Shown here: positions 11,732 to 53,914 of the stretch, one piece after another
Layout: each line of letters starts with the position of its first letter
Numbering within the stretch: position 1 is the stretch's first letter
Origin: an uncultured Chloroflexia bacterium
GTDB lineage: Bacteria; Chloroflexota; Limnocylindria; QHBO01
DNA: 64,000 bases
Reading direction: 5' to 3'
Assembly: GCA_963725885.1 (NCBI GenBank)
Contig: CAVSAH010000006.1
Span: 21,828 to 85,827, forward strand
Program-made: the position numbers and the translations under genes
Notes under the pieces: generated by a model
The model's database searches: none
What the model was told of the DNA's origin: nothing
The model's input: only the letters and a program-made list of their open reading frames with translations

Positions 11732-12601
11732 ATGGCGCTGTACGAGCTCGCGGACACTCCCGACCTTGACGCCCCGGTGATGGTGGCCGCCCTGGAGGGC
11801 TGGGTCGATGCCGGGGGCGCCGGGACGACCGCCGCGAGCCAGCTCGCCGGCGACGGCACCGTGGTCGCGACGTTCGACGCGGACGCGATCTACGACTACC
11901 GCGCTCGGCGTCCCACGCTCGACATCGTCGACGGGCGTCCGCGCTCCCTCGACTGGCCGGCCCTCGAGGTCCGCGCGGTGCGGGTCGGGGAGCGGGACCT
12001 CGTCGTCCTGGTCGGACCGGAGCCCGACTACCGCTGGCGTGAGCTCAGCGCGTCGATGGTCGAGGTCGCCCGCCACCTCGGCGTCGCGAGCTGGGCCAGC
12101 CTCGGCGCGATCCCGGCGGCCGTGCCGCATACCCGGCCGGTGCCGATCCTCGCGACCGCATCGGTCTCCGGGCTCCTTCCGGAGGGAATTCGGCAGGGCC
12201 CCGATGGGCTGCTGCGCGTCCCGTCGGCGTGCCTGTCGGTGCTCGAGCTGGCCGCTTCGTCGGCCGGCATCCCCGCGGTCGGCTTCTTCGCCCAGGTCCC
12301 GCACTACGTGAACGCCTCGTACCCGGCGGCTTCCATCGCTCTGCTCAATGCGTTGGGCCGATATCTCGGCATCGATCCGCCGGTCGGGCAGCTCGCGACC
12401 CGCGCGCTCGAGCGTCGCAACCTGCTCGACGCCGCCACGGCGAGCGACGACGACACGAAGGCCCACGTGGAGCGCCTCGAGCTCCTCGCCGACGAGGCGC
12501 GGCTTCCCGAGGGCGACGAGCTCATCGCCGATATCGAGCGATTCCTTCGCGAGGGCAGCCCCGACGACGAGGGCGGTGACGGCGGCACGCGGCTCCATTG
12601 A
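11732..12601 (+). CDS. PAC2 (proteasome assembly chaperone-like) family protein
   Basis: Intact 289-aa ORF: MALYELADTPDLDAPVMVAALEGWVDAGGAGTTAASQL..LVGPEPDYRWRE.., typical of the actinobacterial PAC2 family. Confidence 0.6.
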   Translation: MALYELADTPDLDAPVMVAALEGWVDAGGAGTTAASQLAGDGTVVATFDADAIYDYRARRPTLDIVDGRPRSLDWPALEVRAVRVGERDLVVLVGPEPDYRWRELSASMVEVARHLGVASWASLGAIPAAVPHTRPVPILATASVSGLLPEGIRQGPDGLLRVPSACLSVLELAASSAGIPAVGFFAQVPHYVNASYPAASIALLNALGRYLGIDPPVGQLATRALERRNLLDAATASDDDTKAHVERLELLADEARLPEGDELIADIERFLREGSPDDEGGDGGTRLH

Positions 12602-12825
12602 GCGCCGACCTCTCGACGCGCGCCCACCGCACCGCTATGCTCCAGCGCATCGTGACCGCTGAACTCCGCTGCGCCCCAGGTTGCTCCTGTTCGTAGGCGG
12701 GAGGAGCTCCGCTCCCCGCCAATCGGTTGCGCGCATCGGTCAGCCGTCCGCTCGTCGCTAAGAGGCTCCTCCTCCCGCCACCAGGCGTTCCTCCTTCCTT
12801 CCGCCTGCCTGCAGGAGCCCGCGAC

Positions 12826-13557
12826 ATGTCCACATCCCTCGGTGCAGCCGATGCGTCCGGCATCCGCACCGCCGATCCCTATCGCGACATCGACGTCATC
12901 GACGCCCGTGCCCCGCGGTTCAACCAGGCCACCGTCGGCATCGTCTCGCTGATCGCCGTCCTGAGCGGCTGGTGGCCGCTCCTCGGCGTGCTCGCCGCGC
13001 AGCTCGGCATCGGCCTCCGCTTCGGCAGGCGTTACTGCCTGCCCTGCGTCGCGTACTTCGAGCTCGTCCAGCCGCGCGTCGGCGAGGGACCGATCGAGGA
13101 CTCCCGCCCGCCGCGGTTCGCCAACCAGGTCGGCTTCGTGGTGCTCTCGGCCGCGACGCTGGCGCACCTCGTCGGGCTCACGGCCGTCGGCAACGGCCTC
13201 GGCCTCCTCGTGGCCGGGCTGGCGCTGCTGGCCGCGGCCACCGGCCTCTGCGTCGGATGCGAGATGTACCGCATCGGCGCGCGGCTGCGGGGGATCCGCG
13301 GGCGCTCGATCGATCGGGTCGAGCTGTCCGAGCTCGGTGCGCCCCCGCAGGCCGGCGAGCTCGTCGTCGCGTTCAGCCACCCGCTGTGCACCGATTGCAG
13401 GGACGTGCTTGCCGATCTCGCCGCGGGCAAGGTCCCGTTCGTGAGCGTCGATGTCCGCGACCGCCCGGACCTTGCGCGCAAGTACGGCATCGCCCTGGTG
13501 CCGACGGTGCTGCGCGTCGCGGGAGACGGTCGGGTCATGCGCCAGGAAGCCGGCTGA
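12826..13557 (+). CDS. DUF4395-like membrane domain fused to a C-terminal thioredoxin/glutaredoxin-like domain
   Basis: ATG at 12826 is preceded by GCAGGAG. ..RFNQATVGIVSLIAVLSGWWPLLGVLAAQLGIGLRFGRRYCLPCVAYFEL..FANQVGFVVLSAATLA.. The C-terminus has SHPLCTDCRDVL..PFVSVDVRDRPDLARKYGIALVPTVL. Confidence 0.5.
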   Translation: MSTSLGAADASGIRTADPYRDIDVIDARAPRFNQATVGIVSLIAVLSGWWPLLGVLAAQLGIGLRFGRRYCLPCVAYFELVQPRVGEGPIEDSRPPRFANQVGFVVLSAATLAHLVGLTAVGNGLGLLVAGLALLAAATGLCVGCEMYRIGARLRGIRGRSIDRVELSELGAPPQAGELVVAFSHPLCTDCRDVLADLAAGKVPFVSVDVRDRPDLARKYGIALVPTVLRVAGDGRVMRQEAG

Positions 13558-13584
13558 GCGGGTCGACGGCGCGCGCGCTGCGGT

Positions 13585-13712
13585 TTGCACCCGGTGCAAC
13601 CAACGGCCACGTTGGGCCCGCGGCCTGTCCCGCCCGTGCAGCTCGCGGCACATACCAGCAGTGTGGGCGCCCCATCCGGGCTCGGGTTGGCCGTTGGTTG
13701 CATCCCATGCAA
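13585..13712. repeat. MITE-like intergenic repeat, copy A. The 14-bp inverted termini are 13595-13608 (TGCAACCAACGGCC) and 13689-13702 (GGCCGTTGGTTGCA), each next to a TTGCAnCnnnTGCAA palindrome.
   Basis: Inverted repeats and palindromes TTGCACCCGGTGCAA (13585-13599) and TTGCATCCCATGCAA (13698-13712) read directly from the sequence. A related copy lies at 15611-15722. Confidence 0.6.
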
Positions 13713-13751
13713 GCCGTCCGCCGCCGCGCGACCATCGCGTAGCCTTCGTGC

Positions 13752-14291
13752 GTGCGCCACCACATCCGCCTCGCCGATCCGGACCGCGACGCCGACGCGG
13801 TGGCTGCGATCTACGCCCTCGCGGTCACGTCGACCACGGCCACGTTCGAGGAGGTCCCCCCCGACGCCGCCGAGATGGCGCGTCGCATTGAAGCCGTGCT
13901 GCCGCGCACGCCGTGGCTCGTGGCCGAGGCCGATGGCGCGGTGATCGGCTATGCCTACGCGGCGCTGCACCGTGAGCGTCCCGGGTATCGCTGGTCGGTC
14001 GACGTCTCGGTGTATGTCGATCCCGCCCGCCACGGACGGGGCGTCGGACGTACCCTCTACGACGACCTCATCGAGCGGCTGCGCACGCAGGGCTACGTGA
14101 ACGCCTATGCCGGGGTCGCGCTGCCAAACCCGGCGAGCGTGGCGCTCCACGAGGCCATCGGCATGCGGCGCATCGGCGTCTACGAGCGCGTCGGATGGAA
14201 GTTCGGCGCGTGGGTCGATGTCGCGTGGTACGGGATGCGCCTGGCGGAGCCGGGCACACCGCCGGCCGAGCCGACGCCACCGTCGCGGTGA
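13752..14291 (+). CDS. GNAT family N-acetyltransferase (phosphinothricin-acetyltransferase-like)
   Basis: GTG start at 13752. Intact 179-aa ORF: HIRLADPDRDADAVAAIYALAVTSTTATFEEVPPD..GRGVGRTLYDDLIERLRTQGYVNAYAGVALPNPASVALHEAIGM. Confidence 0.6.
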   Translation: MRHHIRLADPDRDADAVAAIYALAVTSTTATFEEVPPDAAEMARRIEAVLPRTPWLVAEADGAVIGYAYAALHRERPGYRWSVDVSVYVDPARHGRGVGRTLYDDLIERLRTQGYVNAYAGVALPNPASVALHEAIGMRRIGVYERVGWKFGAWVDVAWYGMRLAEPGTPPAEPTPPSR

Positions 14292-14324
14292 TAACGACGA
14301 GACGAGCAGGAGGATGCAGGACTG

Positions 14325-14711
14325 GTGACGACGCCCACGACGAACATGGTCGACATTGCCGACATCGAGCCGATCCAGGTCTGGGAGGCAATCCGGGCGC
14401 GGCGGGTCGAGGGCGAGAGGATCACCCTGGCGATCGTCGAGCTCGACCCCAACGCCATCGCCCCGGAGCACACCCATCCGGCCGAACAGCACGGGATCGT
14501 GCTCAGCGGCGAGATTCGTTTTCGCGTCGGCGACGAGGAGCGGCTGCTGCACCCGGGTGGGACGTGGCGCATCCTGAGCGGCGTGCCGCACTCGGCAGTC
14601 GCGGGGCCCGAGGGTGCGGTGGTCATCGACGTCTTCAGCCCGACGCGTGAGGATTGGCACGCGCTCGAGGCGCTGGGGCTCTCGACGCCGCGCTGGCCGA
14701 CGGGGGATTGA
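14325..14711 (+). CDS. Cupin domain protein
   Basis: Intact 128-aa ORF: ..LDPNAIAPEHTHPAEQHGIVLSGEIRFRVGDEERLLHPGGTWRILSGVPHSAV. Confidence 0.6.
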   Translation: MTTPTTNMVDIADIEPIQVWEAIRARRVEGERITLAIVELDPNAIAPEHTHPAEQHGIVLSGEIRFRVGDEERLLHPGGTWRILSGVPHSAVAGPEGAVVIDVFSPTREDWHALEALGLSTPRWPTGD

Positions 14712-14744
14712 CTCTCCGGTTACCCGAGACTCCATCCTCGGATC

Positions 14745-15557
14745 ATGGATGAGCTTCTGCCGATCGGCCGATTCGCCCGCCTGAGCGGCCTGTCGATCGG
14801 CGCCCTGCGCCACTACCACGAGGTCGGCGTCCTCGAGCCTGCACGTGTTGACGCGACGACGGGGTATCGCTCGTACGCGCGCTCGCAGCTCGACGACGCC
14901 CGGCTCGTCGCCCGGCTCCGGGAGCTCGACGTCGCGCTGCCCGAGATACGGGCCGTTCTGGCAGCGGACGCCGATGGGCGCAGACGCCTGCTGGCGGCGC
15001 ATCGGTCACGCCTGTCGGCGCAGCTCACCCGCATCCAGCGCCAGCTCCACTGGCTCAACCAGACCATCGACCACGAGGTGCCGATCATGACCACCGCCAC
15101 TCCGACCGCCATCGATGCCGGAACGCACAGGGCCCTCGCGGTCGACCTGTTCAACCACGTCTGGACCCTGCTCGAGGTGCCGGCGCGCACGCCGATGCAG
15201 GACGACGAGATGATCCACGCGGCCCACGCGTCGAGGCATCACTGGGGCGTGGTGGGGGAGCCGGCCAACTTCGCTCGCGGCGAGTGGCAGTGCTCGCGGG
15301 TGTACTCGACCCTCGGCCATGCCGAGCCGGCGCTGTGGCACGCGCGTCGATGCCTCGCCATCTGCGAGGAGCACGGCATCGGCGACTGGGACATCGCGTT
15401 TGCCTGGGAAGCGGTGGCGCGGGCCGCGGCCGTGGCCGGGGACGCGGCCACGCGTGACGACGCGGCGCATCGGGCGCGAGAGCTGACCGTGGCCATCGCG
15501 GAGGACGAGGATCGGGAGCTCGTCCTGTCCGACCTGGCGACCATCCAGGGGGCGTGA
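14745..15557 (+). CDS. MerR family transcriptional regulator with C-terminal effector domain
   Basis: N-terminal helix-turn-helix LPIGRFARLSGLSIGALRHYHEVGVLEPARVDATTGYRSY. Intact 270-aa ORF. Confidence 0.65.
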   Translation: MDELLPIGRFARLSGLSIGALRHYHEVGVLEPARVDATTGYRSYARSQLDDARLVARLRELDVALPEIRAVLAADADGRRRLLAAHRSRLSAQLTRIQRQLHWLNQTIDHEVPIMTTATPTAIDAGTHRALAVDLFNHVWTLLEVPARTPMQDDEMIHAAHASRHHWGVVGEPANFARGEWQCSRVYSTLGHAEPALWHARRCLAICEEHGIGDWDIAFAWEAVARAAAVAGDAATRDDAAHRARELTVAIAEDEDRELVLSDLATIQGA

Positions 15558-15610
15558 CGCGCGCTGGCGGCGAGCACGATGCGGTCCATGCGATTGCGCG
15601 GGATGGCACT

Positions 15611-15722
15611 AACGGCCAAGTTGGGCCGCTGGCATGACCGCCATGTGCAGCCCATGGCACAGGCTGGCCAACAAGACGCCTGAATCAGCGCCTTCTTGGC
15701 CGTTGGTTGCACCGCATGCAAG
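15611..15722. repeat. MITE-like intergenic repeat, copy B. The right inverted terminus GGCCGTTGGTTGCA is at 15698-15711 with palindrome TTGCACCGCATGCAA at 15707-15721; the left arm AACGGCCAAGTTGGGCC at 15611-15627 is partly degenerate.
   Basis: Shares AACGGCCAnGTTGGGCC .. TTGGCCGTTGGTTGCAnCnCATGCAAG with copy A. Shadow ORFs on the opposite strand of both copies translate to shared peptides (CMGCNQRP / CMRCNQRP; GPTWPLV). Confidence 0.6.
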
Positions 15723-15810
15723 TGCTGGGAGCCGCACGCGCGAGAGAACCACGCCAACCCTGACGAAGCCGATGGACGGCGCCGACCGGCGGCCGTAGGC
15801 TGACCCCAGC

Positions 15811-17844
15811 GTGAGCACCTTCCGATATCGGCGCTGGGACGGCACCCAGCAGCTGCCCGCCTTCGACGCCGACGACGTCCTCGACGCGCTCGGGGACGAC
15901 GTGCTGGCCGAGGGGGACGTGCGGCGCGCGCTCCAGCGGCTCATGCAGCGAGGGATGCGCGGGACCCGCGGCGGCGACGTGGCCGGCCTGCGCCGGATCC
16001 TCGAACAGCTCCGGGCGCGGCGGCAGGCCGAGCTCGAAGAGTCGAACCTCGACTCGGTGCTCGGCGACGTCGAGCGACGCCTCGACGAGATCGTCGCGGC
16101 CGAACGCGCCGGGATCGAGCGCCGCGCGAAGGACGCGGAGCGACGCTCCCTCGACGCGCCTCCGGGACCGGATCAGGAGCAGGCGCGGCTCGCCGAGCAG
16201 GTGCTGCGCCGCACCGCCCGCCAGCGCGAGAACCGGCTGGACGCGCTGCCGCCGAACGCCGCCGGCCGCATCAGCGGCCTGCGCGACTACGAGTTCATGG
16301 ACGACGAGGCGCGGGACGCTTTCAACCAGCTCACCGACGAGCTGCGGCAACAGATGCTCGAGACCTACTTCGCCGGGCTCAAGGAGGGGGTCGAGCGCAT
16401 CACCCCCGAGGACCTCGACGGCGTCCGGGAGATGGTGCGCGACCTCAACGGGCTCCTGGAGAAGCACAGCACGGGCGCCGACGTGACCGATGACTTCAGC
16501 GCCTTCATGTCCAAGCACGGCCGCTACTTTCCGCCGGGCATCTCCACCGTGGACGAGCTCATCGAGCATCTTCACCGCCAGGCGTCGCAGATGGCGTCGC
16601 TGCTCAACAGCCTCAGCCCGCAGATGCGCGAGGAGCTGCGGTCGATGATGGACGAGCTGCTCCGCGACGATCGGCTGCGGATCGACATGGCGCGGCTGGC
16701 CGGCAATCTCCAGGCGGCGCGTCCCGACCTGCCCTACGGCGAGCCCTATCCATTCGAGGGCGGCGAGCCGATGGGCCTCTCCGACGCCCTGGCCGCGATC
16801 GACCGCCAGCAGCAGTACGACGCGATGGAGGAGGCGCTGACCTCGGCGCGCGACCCCGATTCGCTCGCGCAGGTCGATCCCGAGACCCTCCGCGATCTCG
16901 CCGGCGACGATGCCGTCGATGACCTCGACCGGCTGCACGAGCTCACGCGCACCCTCGAGGAGGCGGGCTATCTCAACCGCGAGGGTGGCCGCCTCGAGCT
17001 GACCCCGCGAGCGGCGCGCAAGCTGGGGATGCGCGCCCTGACCGACATCTTCAGCCGGCTGCGACGCGAGGGCTTCGGCGGACACGCGCTTCCGCTTGCC
17101 GGTCGTGGCGGCGAACCGACCGATGAGACGAAGCGCTACGAGTTCGGCGACCCGTTCGCGGTCGACATCAACCGCACCCTGTTCAACGCCATGGCGCGCG
17201 GCGGCCCGGGCACGCCGGTTCGCATCGGCGCGGAGGACTTCGAGGTCAACCGGACCGAGGAGACGACCACGTCCTCGACGGTCCTGCTGCTCGACATGAG
17301 CCGCTCGATGCTGCTGCGCGGCTGCTCATCGGCGGCGAAGAAGGTCGCGATGGCGTTGCACACGCTCATCCACACGAAGTACCCGCGCGACCGCCTGCAC
17401 GTCGTCGGGTTCGCGTACTACGCGCGCGAGCTGAAGCCAGAGAGCATTCCCACGCTGAGCCCGTACGAGTTCGAGTACGGCACGAACCTCCAGCACGCTC
17501 TGATCATCGCGCGGCGCCTGCTGGCCCGATCGAGCGGGGGCAACCGCGAGATCGTGGTCATCACCGATGGAGAGCCCACCGCCCACATCGAGGGCGGCCA
17601 GGTCGAGTTCGCCTACCCGCCCACGCTGCGCACGGTCCAGTCGACGCTGCGGGAGGTGGGCCGATGCACCCGCGAGGGGATCGTGATCAACACCTTCATG
17701 CTCGAGCGGTCGCGATACCTCTCCGAGTTCGTCGACCTCATGTCGCGCATCAACCGCGGCCGCGCCTTCTACGTGGAGCCCGAGCATCTCGGCGAGTACG
17801 TGCTCGTCGACTACGTCAGCAAGAAGACGAAGCGCGTCGCCTGA
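15811..17844 (+). CDS. von Willebrand factor A (VWA) domain protein with long N-terminal coiled-coil/acidic region
   Basis: Intact 677-aa ORF with GTG start. C-terminal VWA region: STVLLLDMSRSMLLRG..LHVVGFAYYARELK..REIVVITDGEPTAH. Confidence 0.6.
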   Translation: MSTFRYRRWDGTQQLPAFDADDVLDALGDDVLAEGDVRRALQRLMQRGMRGTRGGDVAGLRRILEQLRARRQAELEESNLDSVLGDVERRLDEIVAAERAGIERRAKDAERRSLDAPPGPDQEQARLAEQVLRRTARQRENRLDALPPNAAGRISGLRDYEFMDDEARDAFNQLTDELRQQMLETYFAGLKEGVERITPEDLDGVREMVRDLNGLLEKHSTGADVTDDFSAFMSKHGRYFPPGISTVDELIEHLHRQASQMASLLNSLSPQMREELRSMMDELLRDDRLRIDMARLAGNLQAARPDLPYGEPYPFEGGEPMGLSDALAAIDRQQQYDAMEEALTSARDPDSLAQVDPETLRDLAGDDAVDDLDRLHELTRTLEEAGYLNREGGRLELTPRAARKLGMRALTDIFSRLRREGFGGHALPLAGRGGEPTDETKRYEFGDPFAVDINRTLFNAMARGGPGTPVRIGAEDFEVNRTEETTTSSTVLLLDMSRSMLLRGCSSAAKKVAMALHTLIHTKYPRDRLHVVGFAYYARELKPESIPTLSPYEFEYGTNLQHALIIARRLLARSSGGNREIVVITDGEPTAHIEGGQVEFAYPPTLRTVQSTLREVGRCTREGIVINTFMLERSRYLSEFVDLMSRINRGRAFYVEPEHLGEYVLVDYVSKKTKRVA

Positions 17845-42879: not shown

Positions 42880-44698
42880 TCGCTCGGCTCCAGGCGGCTG
42901 AAGTAGTCACGCACGAAGTCCTTCAGGGTGATCGGCACCTGCTGCCGATCGAGCGCTGTCTGCGCGTAGTCCCGGAACAGGTCGTAGACGGACCGATACG
43001 GGACGACGCTGTCGTTGTCGAACCCGGCTCCGCTGCCCGATCCCGACTGGTCGGTGCCGCCGTTCCCGCCCGATCCGGCGATGAAGTCGGGATCGCCAGG
43101 CCGACCGAAGCGGTCGAAGTCGACGAGGACGTCGGATTGGTCGTCGACCCCGAACCCCTGGTTGCCCTGGGTCGGGCCGTCGAAGCCACCGGTGCGCAGG
43201 CCGCCGCCGGGAATTCGACGCACCGTGGTCCCGCCGCCGCCGCCCGGCTGTGATCCGGGGTTGCTGCCCGGGTTCGAACCCGGGTTGCTGCCCGGGTTGC
43301 ATCCCGGGTTCGACCCGGGTTGCTGCCGGGATTGCTGCCGGGGTTGCTGCCCGGATTGACCGGATTGCCCGGGTTGGATCCAGGGCTCGCGCCCGGCTGG
43401 CCTGAGCCGCCGGGTTGGCCGGGGCTGCCGCAGGTGCGCCGATGCGCCGGCTGTCCCGACGCCCCCGGCTGTCCCGATGCCCCGGGCTGTCCCGAGGCGC
43501 CCGGCTGCCCCGAGGCACCTGGCTGGCCGGCTGTTGGTTGGCCGGCACGCGCCACCTGCCGTGCGCCGTCCTGGAGGGCCGACTGCGCCGCGGCGATGTC
43601 GCGCTGGAGCTGGCGATCGCGGGAGGCACCCGCGCAGGGCATCCGCGGCATCCCGCAGGGCGTCCTCGGCGGCCTGGCGATCCTCCTCGGCTGCCGGTCC
43701 GCGCGGCACGCTCGAGCGCGTCGGCGGCCTCAGCGAGGGCTCGCGCCGCCTCCGGGTGCGACGTCGCTCCCGACTGAGCCGCCTGCTGGAGGGCGGCGGC
43801 TCGTGCCTCCGCCTCCTGTGGGGTCATCGAGCCTGCCTCGTCGGCGAGCTCCTCGAGGTCCTCTGCCGCCTCCTCGGGGTCACCCTCGGGGTTCGCCTCG
43901 TCGTCGTCTGTCGCAGCCTGCGAAGCGGCCCTGGCGAGCTGAGTCAGGGCGGCATCGCGCTGCGTCGCCTCGGGATCGGCTCAGGCGCGCGAGCGCCTCC
44001 TGGACGGAGCCGATGCGGGCGAGGGTCGCCTCGCGGTCGGCTCCCTGCTCGCGCAGCTGCCGGGCGAGCTCACGCAGCTGCGCGCTCGAGCTCCTCTCGG
44101 CGGGGATCGGGAGACGTTCTCCTCGGCAAGCTCGTCGGCCACCTCGTCGATGCGATCGGCCACTCGCTCGGCGGCCTCACGTGCGGCAGCGCGCTGCCGA
44201 AGGATGTCGTCCTGCGGATTCGGCCAGGCAACCAGCAGCAGCGTCATCGCGAGGCCGACGCCGGCGATGGCCAGCGGCCGGCGAGCGAGCCGCGGTCGGA
44301 ACGCGCTGCGCGCGTCGACGCTGCCGAGCTGGGCCCGCGCGTCGGCCAGCTGTCGGGCCTCGAGCGGGATCGTCGCTCTCGCGCTCGGCGATCTCGAGCG
44401 CCGTCCCGAGCCGCTGGCGGAGCTCGAGCTCCTCGTCGGCGCGGCGGGCAGTCTCCACGAGCGAGGGCCGGCGTCGCGCCACGTCCGCGGCCCATCCCGC
44501 GACGCCGATTGCCACGATCGCCGCCTGGAGCCAGGTGGCGTGCTCGAACGGGAAGGCGCGGGCTGCGAGCTGCACGAGCGCCACCGCGACGAAGGTGATG
44601 GCCAGCGCGACCAGGGCCGAGCGCACCGCGCGGCGCCACCACAGACGCCGGCGCAGTGCACGGAGGCGCCGCAGCGCAGTCGGTTCCGAGGCGCGCAT
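42876..44698 (-). CDS. Membrane protein (about 600 aa) with three transmembrane helices, a long coiled-coil, tandem (GQPGAS)n and (SNPG)n low-complexity repeats, and a conserved C-terminal domain. It is ATGA-coupled to moxR.
   Basis: MRASEPTALRRLRALRRRLWWRRAVRSALVALAITFVAVALVQL..WLQAAIVAIGVAGWAA (ORF 44177..44698); ..LAIAGVGLAMTLLLVAWPNPQDDILRQRAAAREAAERVADRIDEVADELAEE (43981..44796); MTPQEAEARAAALQQAAQ.. (42907..43827); QPGASGQPGASGQPGASGQPGASG..SNPGSNPGSNPG (42923..43651); C-terminus DFDRFGRPGDPDFIAG..VPYRSVYDLFRDYAQTALDRQQVPITLKDFVRDYFSRLEPSE* (42876..43709). The DNA shows 15-bp tandem repeats at about 43255-43380 and 43440-43540. Confidence 0.5.
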
Positions 44699-51246: not shown

Positions 51247-52319
51247 ATGGCGACGACCACGGCCGCGCTCCTCGCCGAGCTGGCCGCACGCCACGGGCTG
51301 GAGCTGCTCGGCGTGACGTCGGCGGATCCTCTCTCCGCGGATCGAGCCCGGATGGAGGCCAGTGTCGGTTCCGGGCGGATGGCGCGCATGGACTGGATGG
51401 GCGGCGAGCGGCCGGCGATCGCGACCGATCCGCGTCGTCATGACCCCGCTGCGCGTTCGGTCATCGTCGTCGCGGCGCCGTATGCGGGTGCGGAGCGCGC
51501 GCGATGGGACCCTGGGCCCGACGCCCTGCGTCGTGCGCTCCGTCCCGTCCTCGAGGCGGCTCCCGCAGAGCCCGCCGGGCGAATCGCGCGATATGCGCTT
51601 GGCACCGACTACCACGTGGCGCTGCGCGGCAGGCTCGAAGCGCTGGCGGCGGACCTGCGCGCATCGGGCGTCGAGGCAGGCGCGACCGCATACGTCGATG
51701 ACCGGCCGCTGGCCGAGCGCGGGTTCGCCGCGCGGGCTGGCATCGGCTGGATCGGGAAGAACACGAACCTATTGACTCACCAACGCGCCGGCTCGTGGGT
51801 CTTCCTCGGGGCCATCCTGAGCTCGGCCGAGCTGCCGGCCGACGAACCGATTCGCTCCAGCTGCGGCGGCTGCACGCGCTGCCTGAGCGGTTGTCCCGAC
51901 GGGAGCGCTGGTCGGGCCGCGCACCATCGATGCCGGGCGCTGCATTAGCTACCTGACGATCGAGCATCCCGGCGGCTTCGACCCGTGGGAGGCATCGGCC
52001 ATTGGCGATTGGATCTTCGGCTGCGACGTGTGCCAGGAGGTCTGCCCGGTGAACGCGCGACGCCGATGACCGCGGCCCGCTGCTCGTTCCGCTCCTGCCG
52101 CTCATCGAATGGCTCCTGCCGCTGGGCGGGCGCGCCTTCGCGCGTGCGGTGGGGGAGACGGCCCTGACACGTGGAGGGCGCCACCGGCTGCTTCGCAATG
52201 CCCTCGCGGCGCTCGGCAACGCCGGCCCGCTAAGCCCCGAGGCGCGTCGGCTCGTCGAGCGAGCAGCGGTGGACAGGCGAATCGAGGTGCGTCGCGCCGC
52301 GGATGCTCTGCTCCGCTGA
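51247..52319 (+). CDS. queG: Epoxyqueuosine reductase QueG (tRNA epoxyqueuosine(34) reductase), two to three frameshifts
   Basis: ..RIARYALGTDYHVALRGRLEALAADL..RPLAERGFAARAGIGWIGKNTNLLTHQRAGSWVFLGAILSSAELPADEPI..CGGCTRCLSGCP (ORF 51247..51948). The downstream iron-sulfur part ..RCISYLTIEHPGGFDPWEASAIGDWIFGCDVCQEVCPVN.. and a HEAT-like tail lie in other frames. Confidence 0.65.
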
Positions 52320-52567
52320 TCGCCGTTGCTGTGCACCAGCGGCACGCATCGGCCAACCCACGGCCGGCCGGTGCCCACTTCGTGCGGCTGGTGCATCTTC
52401 CCGGCAGGACACGGCGGCAGGATCCGCCAAAAGGGGTCCTTCTTGGCAGTTGGATGCCGCTGCGGAACACCCGAAGGGGCCGCTTGGTCCTGTGGTACCG
52501 CTGCCGCACGGCGCGGCCGACGAACGGAGACGCGAAGCCGACGCGCCCACCCGGCTATCCTGATCCG

Positions 52568-53914
52568 ATGCCCAGGGTCGCGCCGTTTCGGGGTCTCCAC
52601 TATGCGCACGCGCGCTTCGGCGCCGGTGCGGTGCCGGCCCGCGTGCAGACCAGCGACGACGCCGATGCGCCGCCCGCGAGCCTGGCCGACGTGACCGATG
52701 TTGCCTGCCCGCCGTACGACGTCATCAGCGACGCCCAGCGCCGCAGCACTGCTGGACCGTGATCCGCGCAACGCGGTCAGGCTCGAGTACAGCGCCGACC
52801 CCGACCCGCACGCGGCCGCGGCCTCGACGCTCACGGGCTGGCTGGCCGACGGCACCCTCGAGCGGCGCGCCGAGCCGGCGGCCTACTACTACCGCCACGC
52901 GACCTCGGCCGCTCCGGACGACCTCGTCGTCGAGGGGATCGCGCTGCGCGTGCTGCTCGAGCCGTGGGGCGATGGCATCCGGCCCCACGAGCACACCATG
53001 CCCGGCCCGAAGGCGGACCGACTGGCCCTGCTGCATGCCACGCGCACGCAGCTGAGCCCGATCCTGGCGGTCTACTTCGATCGCTCGGAACGGCACCACC
53101 ACCTCATGGCGCGGGCCTGGACGGACGAGTGGCGCGCGCGCGACGACGACGGCCTGCTCCACCAGCTGGCGGCCTTCGAGGCCGACGACCGGCTCCTGGG
53201 CCACCTCGGGCGCCAGACGTTCTTCGTCGCGGACGGCCATCACCGCTACGAGACTGCGCTCGCCTACCAGGCCGAGGTTCGCGCCGATCCGCGCTTTACG
53301 GCGGCGGATCCGGGGAGCCTCGCGGCCGACTGGATCCTCATGCTTCTCGTCAACGCGGAGCTCGCCGAGCTCGAGATCCTGCCCACTCATCGGCTCCTGC
53401 TCGAATCCGATGCCGATGCGCTGCGCGCGCTCGTCGGCGGGGACGACCCGCTATGGCAGTCCATCCCCGTATCGCCGGAGGGCCTCGACGGGGCCCTGGC
53501 CGATCGGGCCCCGAGCACGCGGCCCCGCGTTCGGGCTGGTGCTGCCCGGACGACGACGGGTTCCTGCTCCTCGGCGACACCGACGGGATCGAGGCGAGGC
53601 TTCGCCGAGAGGTGATGTCCGGCGCGTCGCGGGCCCTCGACCTCGCCGCTCTGCACACAACGATTCTTGGCGACCGCCTCGGCATCACGGCCGACGATCT
53701 CGCTGCGGGCACCCGCCTCGCCTACACTAGGGACGCCGACGACGCGCGCCAACGGGTGGCCACCGGCGAGGCCGCGGCCGCGATTCTCGTGCGCTCGACC
53801 CCTCTCGACCAGATGGCCGACGTGGCGACCGCCGGCGACGTGATGCCACAGAAATCGACCTACTTCTATCCCAAGCTCCTGACCGGGCTGGTCTTCAACC
53901 CCCTGGAGGACTGA
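52568..53914 (+). CDS. DUF1015 family protein, two frameshifts
   Basis: MPRVAPFRGLHYAHARFG..VACPPYDVISDAQR (ORF 52109..52762); ..AAYYYRHAT..HEHTMPGPKADRLALLHATRTQLSPILAVYFD..FFVADGHHRYETALAYQ (52698..53615); ..PQKSTYFYPKLLTGLVFNPLED* (52964..53914). Confidence 0.55.

Follow-up and report, generated by a model that had tools for sequence, protein, structure and literature searches.

Two palindromic elements flanking a resident GNAT–cupin–MerR gene group in Candidatus Limnocylindria are probably independent insertions of a MITE/REPIN-like family

Introduction

Candidatus Limnocylindria is an abundant, uncultured class of Chloroflexota found in soil and freshwater. In the 64-kb stretch of DNA analyzed here (the window), two copies of an inverted-repeat sequence, A and B, lie on either side of three small plus-strand genes encoding a GNAT protein, a cupin, and a MerR-family regulator. 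A sequence-only reading had proposed that this module was mobilized or recombined between the repeats, or that the palindromes in the repeats are operators. The locus therefore raises the question of whether the repeats are the borders of a cassette, regulatory signals, or elements in their own right. We found that A and B are probably small, non-coding, palindromic, non-autonomous mobile elements of a MITE/REPIN-like family of Candidatus Limnocylindria, which inserted independently of each other. No earlier description of small palindromic mobile repeats in this class was found in a limited literature search.

Results

A and B are directional copies of one inverted-repeat element

The 128-nt core of copy A is located at 13585–13712 and that of copy B at 15594–15721, both on the plus strand, with model R1 scores of 122 and 125 bits, respectively, and a start-to-start spacing of 2009 at both ends. 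The left arm of A (TTGCACCCGGTGCAACCAACGGCCA, 13585–13609) holds a 15-bp palindrome at 13585–13599, and the right arm (TGGCCGTTGGTTGCATCCCATGCAA, 13688–13712) holds the palindrome at 13698–13712. In copy B, the right arm (15697–15721) is intact and the left arm (15594–15619) is decayed, as the sequence-only reading had described, but the limits that it gave for this copy (15611–15722) had to be corrected to those above. The sequence features that it reported for two inverted-repeat copies about 2 kb apart are all present, and its internal hairpin corresponds to the palindrome CCAACGGCCACGTTGG at 13600–13615 of copy A. The 14-bp repeats and the 15-bp palindromes were likewise recovered, except that each palindrome shares 5 nt with its inverted repeat instead of adjoining it, and the true arms are 25–40 nt long. 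Complementarity of the inverted repeats is perfect over 14 bp, 92–100% over 25 bp, and 75% over 40 nt. The inverted repeat of A reaches beyond the core to 13581–13716, where 13581–13620 pairs with 13677–13716, and the left arm of A is 92% complementary to the right arm of B.

The 25-nt inverted arms TTGCAnnnnnTGCAACCAACGGCCA are common to A and B far beyond chance. The 14-nt arm motif GGCCGTTGGTTGCA occurs three times in the window (13595–13608 on the minus strand, 13689–13702, and 15698–15711), against an expectation of about 0.3, and a count of three was reached in none of 100 shuffles. The palindrome TTGCANCNNNTGCAA was found in the window only at 13585–13599, 13698–13712, and 15707–15721 (expected 0.1), and the 25-nt pattern TGGCCGTTGGTTGCANNNNNTGCAA gave three matches at up to three mismatches where none was expected. 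Ungapped comparison showed that A and B are 66% identical in the same orientation and 53% identical in the opposite one, indicating that they are directional copies. The identity is unevenly distributed: the right arms agree at 24/26 positions, the left arms at 18/25, and the interiors at only 42/77 (55%). With such diverged interiors, A and B are not a pair of recent duplicates and make poor substrates for homologous recombination.

Both copies are intergenic, as had been noted before: A lies between the stop codon of the DUF4395-thioredoxin gene (13557) and the start of the GNAT gene (13752), and B between the stop codon of merR (15557) and the start of the vWA gene (15811). The elements lack coding capacity, since they contain only spurious overlapping ORFs and show no GC3 coding signal. 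Their GC content is not anomalous either.

Related copies occur at other intergenic sites

A possible third, divergent copy, C, was detected on the plus strand at 52322–52478 (model R1, 18.4 bits, E 0.16), inside about 217 nt of inserted sequence located after the queG stop codon (52319) and before the start of a DUF1015 gene (52568). Outside the window, related copies were found at other intergenic sites of three metagenome contigs, namely L021 (3172–3317), L023 (1460–1605 and 3762–3907), and L087 (521–674), and the family members share the core CnAnCGGCCA...TGGCCGnTnG. The member in L087 is a different one, about 40% identical to B, and it sits in the same MerR-to-vWA spacer, which indicates an independent insertion. 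Within the sequence searched, the copy number is low: the 64 kb hold two clear copies and one doubtful copy, and the related DNA, about 0.69 Mb, adds four. Five of the approximately seven known copies lie within about 2.3 kb of a vWA gene, in a sampling that was centered on vWA; a locus-specific role could account for this clustering.

A search of 185,579 GTDB representative genomes with the exact arm motif gave only three matches, in unrelated taxa and at about the number estimated for chance, and no match was obtained in IMG/VR. Arm sequences vary from genome to genome, and an exact-motif pattern was therefore probably too narrow. Hairpin repeats of the type TACCAAC/GGCTTAGGC around HTH_31 genes (L004, L005, and L084) were considered as homologues; model R1 did not detect them, and thus we claim no homology.

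The arms covary, and both strands fold about equally well

Folded as RNA, copy A reached −79.4 kcal/mol (z −4.65) and copy B −62.9 kcal/mol (z −1.8), and folding of A as DNA gave −40 kcal/mol (z −2.9). Across the family the arms covary: 90% of cells are paired and 16 of 36 pairs show compensatory changes, a level that none of 500 shuffles reached. A short palindrome inside the arm is clear in both arms of A and in the right arms of the copies L021dn and L023dn, and is weak or absent in the others. A hairpin within the arm was rejected as a universal feature, being significant in only about half of the arms.

Rather than selfish DNA, such structures could also be functional signals of RNA or DNA that selection maintains where transcription units end, for example a terminator without a U-tract, an insulator, or an mRNA-stabilizing 3′ hairpin. 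The great stability of the hairpins (−79 and −63 kcal/mol) and the covariation of their helices agree with this explanation, as do the equal polarity of all copies relative to plus-strand genes and the position of five of them (A, B, C, L021dn, and L023dn), which begin 3–64 nt past the stop codon of a co-oriented gene. The wobble-asymmetry test, however, counted 23 G:T-type and 18 A:C-type mismatches, and the folding energies of the two strands are similar, so that a plus-strand RNA is not specifically favored and a structure confined to RNA finds no support. A tRNA was the sole match above the gathering threshold when Rfam was searched over the window, and nothing relevant appeared at E up to 10 over 13300–16000. 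A consensus scan of 13300–16000 yielded neither promoter matches nor T-tract terminators, with a consensus that fits a high-GC organism poorly. The copy L023up lies between divergent genes, which does not suit a 3′-end signal, and the closest relatives carry the same genes entirely without elements. We therefore regard a selected functional signal as unlikely.

The sites of A, B, and C are empty in close relatives

At site A, the spacer is 194 nt in the window and 39 nt in the closest relative, L088, whose GNAT is 96% identical in amino acids and 94.6% in nucleotides. At site B, merR and vWA are separated by 253 nt in the window, compared with 49 nt in L086, whose vWA protein is 95% identical to that of the window, and 69 nt in L089. 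L086 and L088 derive from the metagenome samples ERZ27251452 and JGI 3300035165. Seven related contigs (L088, L089, L090, L004, L019, L025, and L028) are empty at site A, five (L086, L089, L009, L018, and L028) at site B, and L091 and L092, each with a spacer of 31 nt, at site C. Since the more distant relatives (L004, L019, L025, L028, L090, L009, and L018) are also empty, insertion is more parsimonious than repeated deletion.

These empty sites also bear on whether a single ancestral intergenic palindrome was duplicated locally to give A and B, without transposition. The copies lie 2 kb apart in direct orientation and are identical in length, as such a duplication would leave them. However, neither site is occupied in relatives with 85–96% identity in the flanking genes, indicating that both copies are recent, and recent copies with interiors only 55% identical cannot be recent copies of each other. 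Together with the related copies at unrelated sites and in other genomes, this makes local duplication very improbable, and independent insertion is the reading that we retain.

The segment absent from L088 at site A spans 155 nt (13576–13730), and the L088 sequence at the unoccupied site is GCGAGTCGATGGCGCGCG|ACCATCGCGTAGCG. GGCGCGCG (13568–13575) and GCCGCGCG (13723–13730) may represent an imperfect target duplication. At site B, the segment 15558–15759 is missing from L086 and L089, whose sites are empty, and CGCGCG stands at both ends of the segment (15558–15563 and 15737–15742). CGCGCG-type sequence is present at both junctions of A, at both junctions of B, and in the empty sites, which is compatible with a short target duplication; this candidate is not established, because it is imperfect and lies in low-complexity GC-rich sequence. 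Longer target duplications were rejected: the sequence after A matches that before it at 12/18 positions and the resemblance at site C is 61%, a divergence too great for insertions that postdate the separation from L088 and L091 (roughly 5%), and we treat both resemblances as chance or GC-richness. The inserted segments (155, about 200, and about 217 nt) exceed the 128-nt core, and therefore the ends of the core are not equated with the true termini.

The bracketed genes are resident in the chromosome

The three genes between the copies are all on the plus strand. The GNAT gene (13752–14291), phosphinothricin-acetyltransferase-like by Pfam and syntenic with vWA, is followed by a Cupin_2 gene (14325–14711), which is present without elements in L004, L089, and L090, and by merR (14745–15557), which has orthologues without elements in L005, L009, L018, L028, L086, and L089. 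In L089, the order PAC2-DUF4395-GNAT-cupin-MerR-vWA is preserved; the two spacers there measure 31 and 69 nt and are both free of the element. More than 20 related contigs have GNAT immediately 5′ of vWA, and judging from this gene order the pairing is the ancestral arrangement rather than cargo. The bracketed genes do not differ from their flanks in GC content. The proposal that the module had been mobilized or recombined between the repeats thus does not stand: the same five-gene order exists without elements in L089, GNAT is ancestral beside vWA, GC is uniform, and the interiors of the copies are only 55% identical. GNAT, cupin, and MerR are resident chromosomal genes that were already in place and not a mobile cassette, and A and B are accordingly best read as ordinary selfish-DNA elements.

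A related explanation takes the elements as att-like or integron-attC-like recombination sites, with the DNA between direct copies as an excisable or exchangeable cassette. The DUF4395-to-vWA interval is indeed a variable hot spot, in which cupin, MerR, ASCH, and HTH_31 genes come and go among relatives; a minus-strand HTH_31 gene lies between direct repeats of other hairpin elements in L004, L005, L021, L080, and L084, and two copies bracket vWA in L023. Against this, not only does L089 have GNAT, cupin, and MerR in place without elements, but subsets of these genes are likewise found without them in L028, L005, and L004, and GNAT beside vWA is ancestral. The attC core sites RYYYAAC/GTTRRRY lack conservation, no integrase was found among the window ORFs, and no GC difference was seen, so we consider the cassette explanation most unlikely. 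A broader version, in which the DUF4395-to-vWA interval would be a hot spot dedicated to gene exchange, with diverse hairpin elements, including the A/B family, as landmarks of recombination or insertion, seems doubtful to us; under it, the cupin, MerR, ASCH, and HTH_31 genes may be gained and lost beside these landmarks through a process that involves neither integrons nor IS elements.

The palindromes do not behave as MerR operators

The sequence-only reading had alternatively suggested that the TTGCAnCnnnTGCAA palindromes may be operators of a helix-turn-helix regulator such as MerR. A putative MerR-type promoter/operator of merR itself was recognized on the plus strand at 14708–14738 (TTGACT-N19-CATCCT, with the dyad ACTCTC..GAGACT). 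An architecture with a 19-nt spacer is typical of MerR-family promoters, and from this match we infer an operator function for 14708–14738. L005 and L028 conserve this region, and traces of it persist in L017, L024, and L025. Downstream of element B, TGGACG-N17-TAGGCT (15773–15801, plus strand) is conserved directly 5′ of vWA in essentially all related loci and is likely to act as the vWA promoter. GNAT, merR, and vWA each have a conserved promoter-like sequence of their own.

Three 15-bp palindromes lie within 2.2 kb of merR and none elsewhere in the window, an arrangement that would suit the TTGCAnnnnnTGCAA palindromes as operator sites of the neighboring MerR or of a different helix-turn-helix regulator. 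However, the promoter-like region of merR has its own conserved dyad at 14708–14738, and TTGCAN5TGCAA was not found in any of 84 related loci (about 0.67 Mb), including the six with merR orthologues, nor in the related DNA as a whole (about 0.69 Mb). Unlike that dyad, the TTGCAN5TGCAA sites do not lie in a 19–20 bp spacer separating promoter −35 and −10 boxes, and their distance to the downstream −10 box is inconsistent, being 27 nt at A and 74 nt at B. The palindromes moreover overlap and form part of transposon-like arms, and the outer sequences of the homologous elements in L021, L023, and L087 differ from those of the window copies. These results contradict the operator assignment, which can hardly be correct.

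Discussion

The locus itself carries a negative message: GNAT, cupin, and MerR are resident genes rather than a mobile cassette, and the predicted MerR operator lies elsewhere than in the repeats. The elements are probably ordinary selfish DNA in a little-studied lineage, a new family of a known kind. In each element, two conserved inverted arms of about 25 nt flank a spacer of fixed length, whose sequence drifts while its ability to pair is kept, so that the whole unit can extrude as a long hairpin or cruciform. In the mechanism that we propose, A and B would have entered two pre-existing intergenic spacers separately, one after the DUF4395-thioredoxin gene and the other after merR, and both insertions would date to the recent lineage of the source genome. 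Insertion was presumably catalyzed in trans by a transposase encoded outside the window; no transposase, integrase, or Y1/HUH protein was found among its approximately 47 ORFs. Membership of a family, covariation of the arms, unoccupied orthologous sites, the lack of coding capacity, and the ancestral order of the genes are demonstrated by the present data. We infer transposition as the mechanism of insertion, an enzyme that would be of either the DDE or the HUH/Y1 kind, and any effect that the elements may have on expression. A narrower form of the gene-exchange reading above, likewise doubtful, takes the family as a REPIN-type population whose arms lack GTAG, which would be the first in an uncultured class of Chloroflexota and would have its own unrecognized single-copy transposase. 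A family with empty-site evidence offers a marker for strain typing and a handle for finding the responsible transposase, and it cautions annotators that such hairpins can be mistaken for riboswitches, terminators, or operators.

Among known systems, integron attC sites and CALINs resemble the elements in being imperfect palindromes (57–141 bp) with variable centers, in direct orientation around small genes such as acetyltransferases. They were nevertheless rejected as an identity, because the R″/R′ core sites (RYYYAAC/GTTRRRY) are not matched: the window has AACCAAC/GTTGGTT or GTGCAAC/GTTGCAY, each with one mismatch, and L023 has GCTATC/GATAGC, so that the AAC/GTT triplet is not conserved in the family. 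Unlike integron cassettes, the bracketed genes are ancestral by synteny, have promoter-like sequences of their own, and have no integrase nearby.

ERIC/IRU elements of enterobacteria are 127-bp imperfect palindromes that lie in intergenic regions beside stop codons and are patchy in related genomes, and no transposase is known for them. A and B share with them a nearly identical size, an imperfect palindrome over the whole length, an intergenic position by stop codons, and a patchy presence, but show no sequence similarity and no Rfam or other match, and belong to another phylum.

Bacterial MITEs with terminal inverted repeats include the Correia elements of Neisseria (definition in PMC11602168). 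The elements agree with MITEs in size (128–155 nt, within a MITE range of about 50–800 bp), in being intergenic without an ORF, in terminal inverted repeats of at least 14–25 bp (at least 10–15 bp in MITEs) that are better conserved than the interior, and in presence/absence polymorphism between close relatives. A short target duplication (2–10 bp in MITEs) is possible, although the candidates here are imperfect and not cleanly delimited. The elements differ from MITEs in that a parent insertion sequence sharing their ends was not seen in the window and in that the pairing runs beyond the termini through most of the A/B interior.

REPINs are REP doublets that form hairpins and are mobilized by RAYT tyrosine transposases (Bertels & Rainey 2011, PMC3116915), and one REP end is marked by a GTAG (or CGTC) tetranucleotide tag (PMC3733652). 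The arms of A and B are without a GTAG/CTAC or CGTC tag, the nearest being GTTGG in the window, GTTAG in L021, and GATAG in L023, and neither a RAYT gene nor a Y1_Tnp match was present among the scanned window ORFs. REPINs also usually number tens to hundreds, whereas 2–3 copies occur in the 64 kb here, and the possible short target duplication is not expected for IS200/IS605-type insertion. The correspondence in structure is nonetheless close: two conserved sequences of about 25 nt are inverted around a less conserved spacer of fixed length (PMC3116915), compensatory changes accompany the folding of the whole unit, about 110–130 nt, into a long hairpin, and the unit is extragenic and non-coding. 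REPIN arms can also hold a short palindrome of their own, as the window arms do with TTGCAC-CCG-GTGCAA; in the A/B family this palindrome is clear in some arms and weak or absent in others. The architecture of A and B is MITE-like and, more precisely, REPIN-like.

Two 128-nt palindromic elements flank the GNAT, cupin and MerR genes

All sequence features described in the sequence-only reading were found within 13400-15900. A repeat search and direct comparison confirmed the proposed extent of element A (13585-13712), whereas that of element B was corrected to 15594-15721. Each copy is exactly 128 nt, with an A-B offset of 2009 that is identical at both ends. The surrounding genes, all on the plus strand, encode PAC2 (11732-12601), DUF4395-thioredoxin (12727-13557), GNAT (13752-14291), cupin (14325-14711), MerR (14745-15557) and a large vWA protein (15811-17844); element A precedes the GNAT gene and element B the vWA gene. 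The GC content of the region is flat. The vWA homologues (80-95% identity), where named, are annotated as MAG proteins from Candidatus Limnocylindria or Chloroflexota.

The GGCCGTTGGTTGCA motif occurs three times in the 64-kb window (13595-13608 on the minus strand, 13689-13702 and 15698-15711; about 0.3 expected), and the palindrome TTGCAnCnnnTGCAA, for which the whole window was scanned, only at 13585-13599, 13698-13712 and 15707-15721. The 25-nt pattern TGGCCGTTGGTTGCANNNNNTGCAA likewise gave three matches with at most 3 mismatches, against 0 expected, and no further clear copy besides A and B was found in 64 kb. Aligned in the same orientation, the two copies share 66% identity, against 53% when one is inverted, indicating that they have polarity and lie as direct copies. 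By part, the right arms share 24/26 positions, the left arms 18/25 and the interiors 42/77. Both were predicted to fold into long hairpins as RNA (A, -79.4 kcal/mol, z -4.65; B, -62.9 kcal/mol, z -1.8) and also as DNA.

Related elements in other genomes share a covarying core

Using an HMM made from A and B to search the related loci, we found matches in L021 (3172-3317, 3' of the vWA gene) and L023 (1460-1605 and 3762-3907, flanking the vWA gene), which the family covariance model R1 scored at 122-128 bits. A further R1 match (L087 521-674, 38 bits) occupies the same MerR-vWA spacer as B, yet the two share only about 40% identity; we interpret this member as having inserted independently at a preferred position. 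The core common to the family is CnAnCGGCCA ... TGGCCGnTnG, and both arms vary in concert: left CCAACGGCCA and right TGGCCGTTGG in the window, CTAACGGCCA and TGGCCGTTAG in L021, and CTATCGGCCA and TGGCCGATAG in L023. In a five-sequence alignment, 90% of cells were paired and 16 of the 36 pairs carried two-sided changes, values that shuffled and slid controls came nowhere near.

If a plus-strand RNA were selected, the stem mismatches should be mostly G:U-compatible, but 23 were of G:T type and 18 of A:C type, and the two strands fold about equally well. The elements had no Rfam match and no canonical terminator was predicted in them. Most copies begin 3-64 nt past a stop codon, and the L023 member upstream of the vWA gene lies between divergent genes. 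Taken together, these results speak more for a palindromic element at the DNA level than for a dedicated RNA, and such an element could conceivably affect transcription as a side effect.

Filled and empty sites suggest recent insertion

At site A, the closest relative, L088 (GNAT 96% identical in amino acids, 94.6% in nucleotides), reads GCGAGTCGATGGCGCGCG|ACCATCGCGTAGCG across the junction, and the window has GCGGGTCGACGGCGCGCG, 155 added nt (13576-13730) and then ACCATCGCGTAGCC. At site B, L086 (vWA 95% in amino acids) and L089 run from the merR stop nearly directly to the conserved vWA promoter, and the window has about 200 nt more. Since both sites are also empty in more distant relatives, recent insertion of A and B in the lineage of the window is the parsimonious reading. 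CGCGCG-type sequence at both A junctions (GGCGCGCG at 13568-13575, GCCGCGCG at 13723-13730), at both B junctions (15558-15563, 15737-15742) and in the empty sites could be a short target duplication, an imperfect one in low-complexity sequence. Both insertions postdate the split from relatives about 5-10% different, and yet the A and B interiors differ by 45%, which means that neither was copied from the other and that they must have come from different source copies with the same arms.

A possible third, divergent copy in the window is a weak R1 match at 52322-52478 (18.4 bits, E 0.16). It falls within some 217 nt inserted between queG and the DUF1015 gene, an insertion missing in L091 (96% in amino acids) and L092 (87%), both with 31-nt spacers. 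Here queG (51247-52319) and the DUF1015 gene (52568-53615) look frameshifted against the intact L091 and L092 orthologues (356 aa; 447-448 aa); the DUF1015 N-terminus uses one frame from 52568 to a stop at about 52760, and then another. These genes may be either pseudogenes or the product of assembly indel errors.

The bracketed genes are resident

It had been proposed that the GNAT-cupin-MerR module may have been mobilised or recombined between the repeats. We collected 87 related loci with vWA, GNAT and DUF1015 proteins as queries, and in over 20 contigs their tblastn map placed GNAT immediately 5' of vWA. The usual order is DUF4395-GNAT-vWA, with cupin, MerR, ASCH and HTH_31 genes found between GNAT and vWA in some loci and not in others. 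L089 is decisive in this respect: it has the window order PAC2-DUF4395-GNAT-cupin-MerR-vWA (identities: DUF4395 79%, GNAT 85%, cupin 91%, MerR 87%), short DUF4395-GNAT and MerR-vWA spacers (31 and 69 nt) and no match to R1. The module is thus older than the elements; mobilisation was not borne out, and comparative sequence evidence indicates that the three genes are not cargo.

The GNAT-vWA spacer also appears to be a hot spot of small palindromic insertions. Other REP/BIME-like families occur there in L011 (3100-3290), L016 (680-850) and L012 (850-1030): GCCAACnnnnnTTGGC units alternate with GTGACCG...CGGTCAC hairpins in the first two, and hairpins in L012 are tagged CCCCACGGG. Immediately upstream of vWA, some loci have a minus-strand gene for an HTH_31 (XRE-type) protein of 216-242 aa, and in each of them other hairpin elements flank it as direct repeats, with units like TACCAACCAGnATCGGCTTAGGC and an inverted partner (L004 6693-7682; L005 1811-2010 and 2716-2910; L084 8888-9040 and 9752-9950; L080 1381-2544; L021 1-193 and 939-1089). 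The L021 repeat, about 190 nt, contains a second, decayed vWA promoter copy. The arrangement looks like gain of the gene through recombination that took place at, or involved, a palindromic element. Elsewhere in the window, tandem arrays at 43242-43358 (12-nt period CCCGGGTTGCTG, about 10 units) and 43435-43525 (18-nt period CCGGCTGTCCCGAGGCCC) are probably low-complexity Pro/Gly-rich coding repeats with no relation to the elements.

The palindromes are not MerR operators

An operator role for the palindromes, suggested by the adjacent merR gene, was rejected. Upstream of merR, at 14708-14738, lies a promoter for this gene, of the classical MerR type (TTGACT, a 19-nt spacer with the dyad ACTCTC..GAGACT, CATCCT), conserved in L005 and L028. 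TTGCAN5TGCAA was found in none of the first 84 related loci collected, six with merR orthologues among them; the right-hand palindrome ends 27 nt (A) and 74 nt (B) before the next downstream -10 box, and the outer sequences of homologous elements in other genomes differ.

The merR promoter overlaps the cupin stop codon, and its remnant upstream of vWA in L017, L024 and L025, where merR is absent, suggests loss of merR in those lineages. Nearly all vWA loci conserve TGGACG-N17-TAGGCT (15773-15801 in the window), with its end some 9-13 nt short of the vWA start codon, which implies that the vWA mRNA would be leaderless or have a very short leader; TAGCCT lies just 6 nt ahead of the GNAT GTG start. 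The vWA promoter spacer/-10 region at 15790-15801 (window, GGCCGTAGGCT; relatives, ATCGGCCTAGGCT) is similar to the element core arm at 15698-15709 (GGCCGTTGGTT; ATCGGCCA in L023), which may be chance or a hint at target or origin.

Comparison with known repeats

All families recognised by Pfam scans of roughly 47 window ORFs were housekeeping or metabolic ones, with no transposase or integrase among them. The exact arm motif gave 3 matches in unrelated taxa among 185,579 representative genomes, about chance by our estimate, and none in IMG/VR, a rarity that fits arms varying between genomes. As an integron attC candidate, the elements lack the core sites. The MITE-like label given from sequence is supported by the inverted arms, the empty sites and agreement with generic MITE criteria (PMC11602168); compared with a classical MITE, a parent IS was not found and the target duplication is only putative. 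REPs carry a GTAG/CGTC tag (PMC3733652), whereas the element arms do not. Compared with REPINs, arm-internal palindromes are clear in just about half of the arms and no Y1 transposase was seen among the window ORFs, but the match to the REPIN description (PMC3116915) is otherwise close: inverted arms that are conserved, a spacer of constant length that is less so, and a hairpin kept by compensatory changes. The elements are a new family, from an uncultured Chloroflexota class, of a kind already known, the MITE/REPIN-like palindromic repeat.
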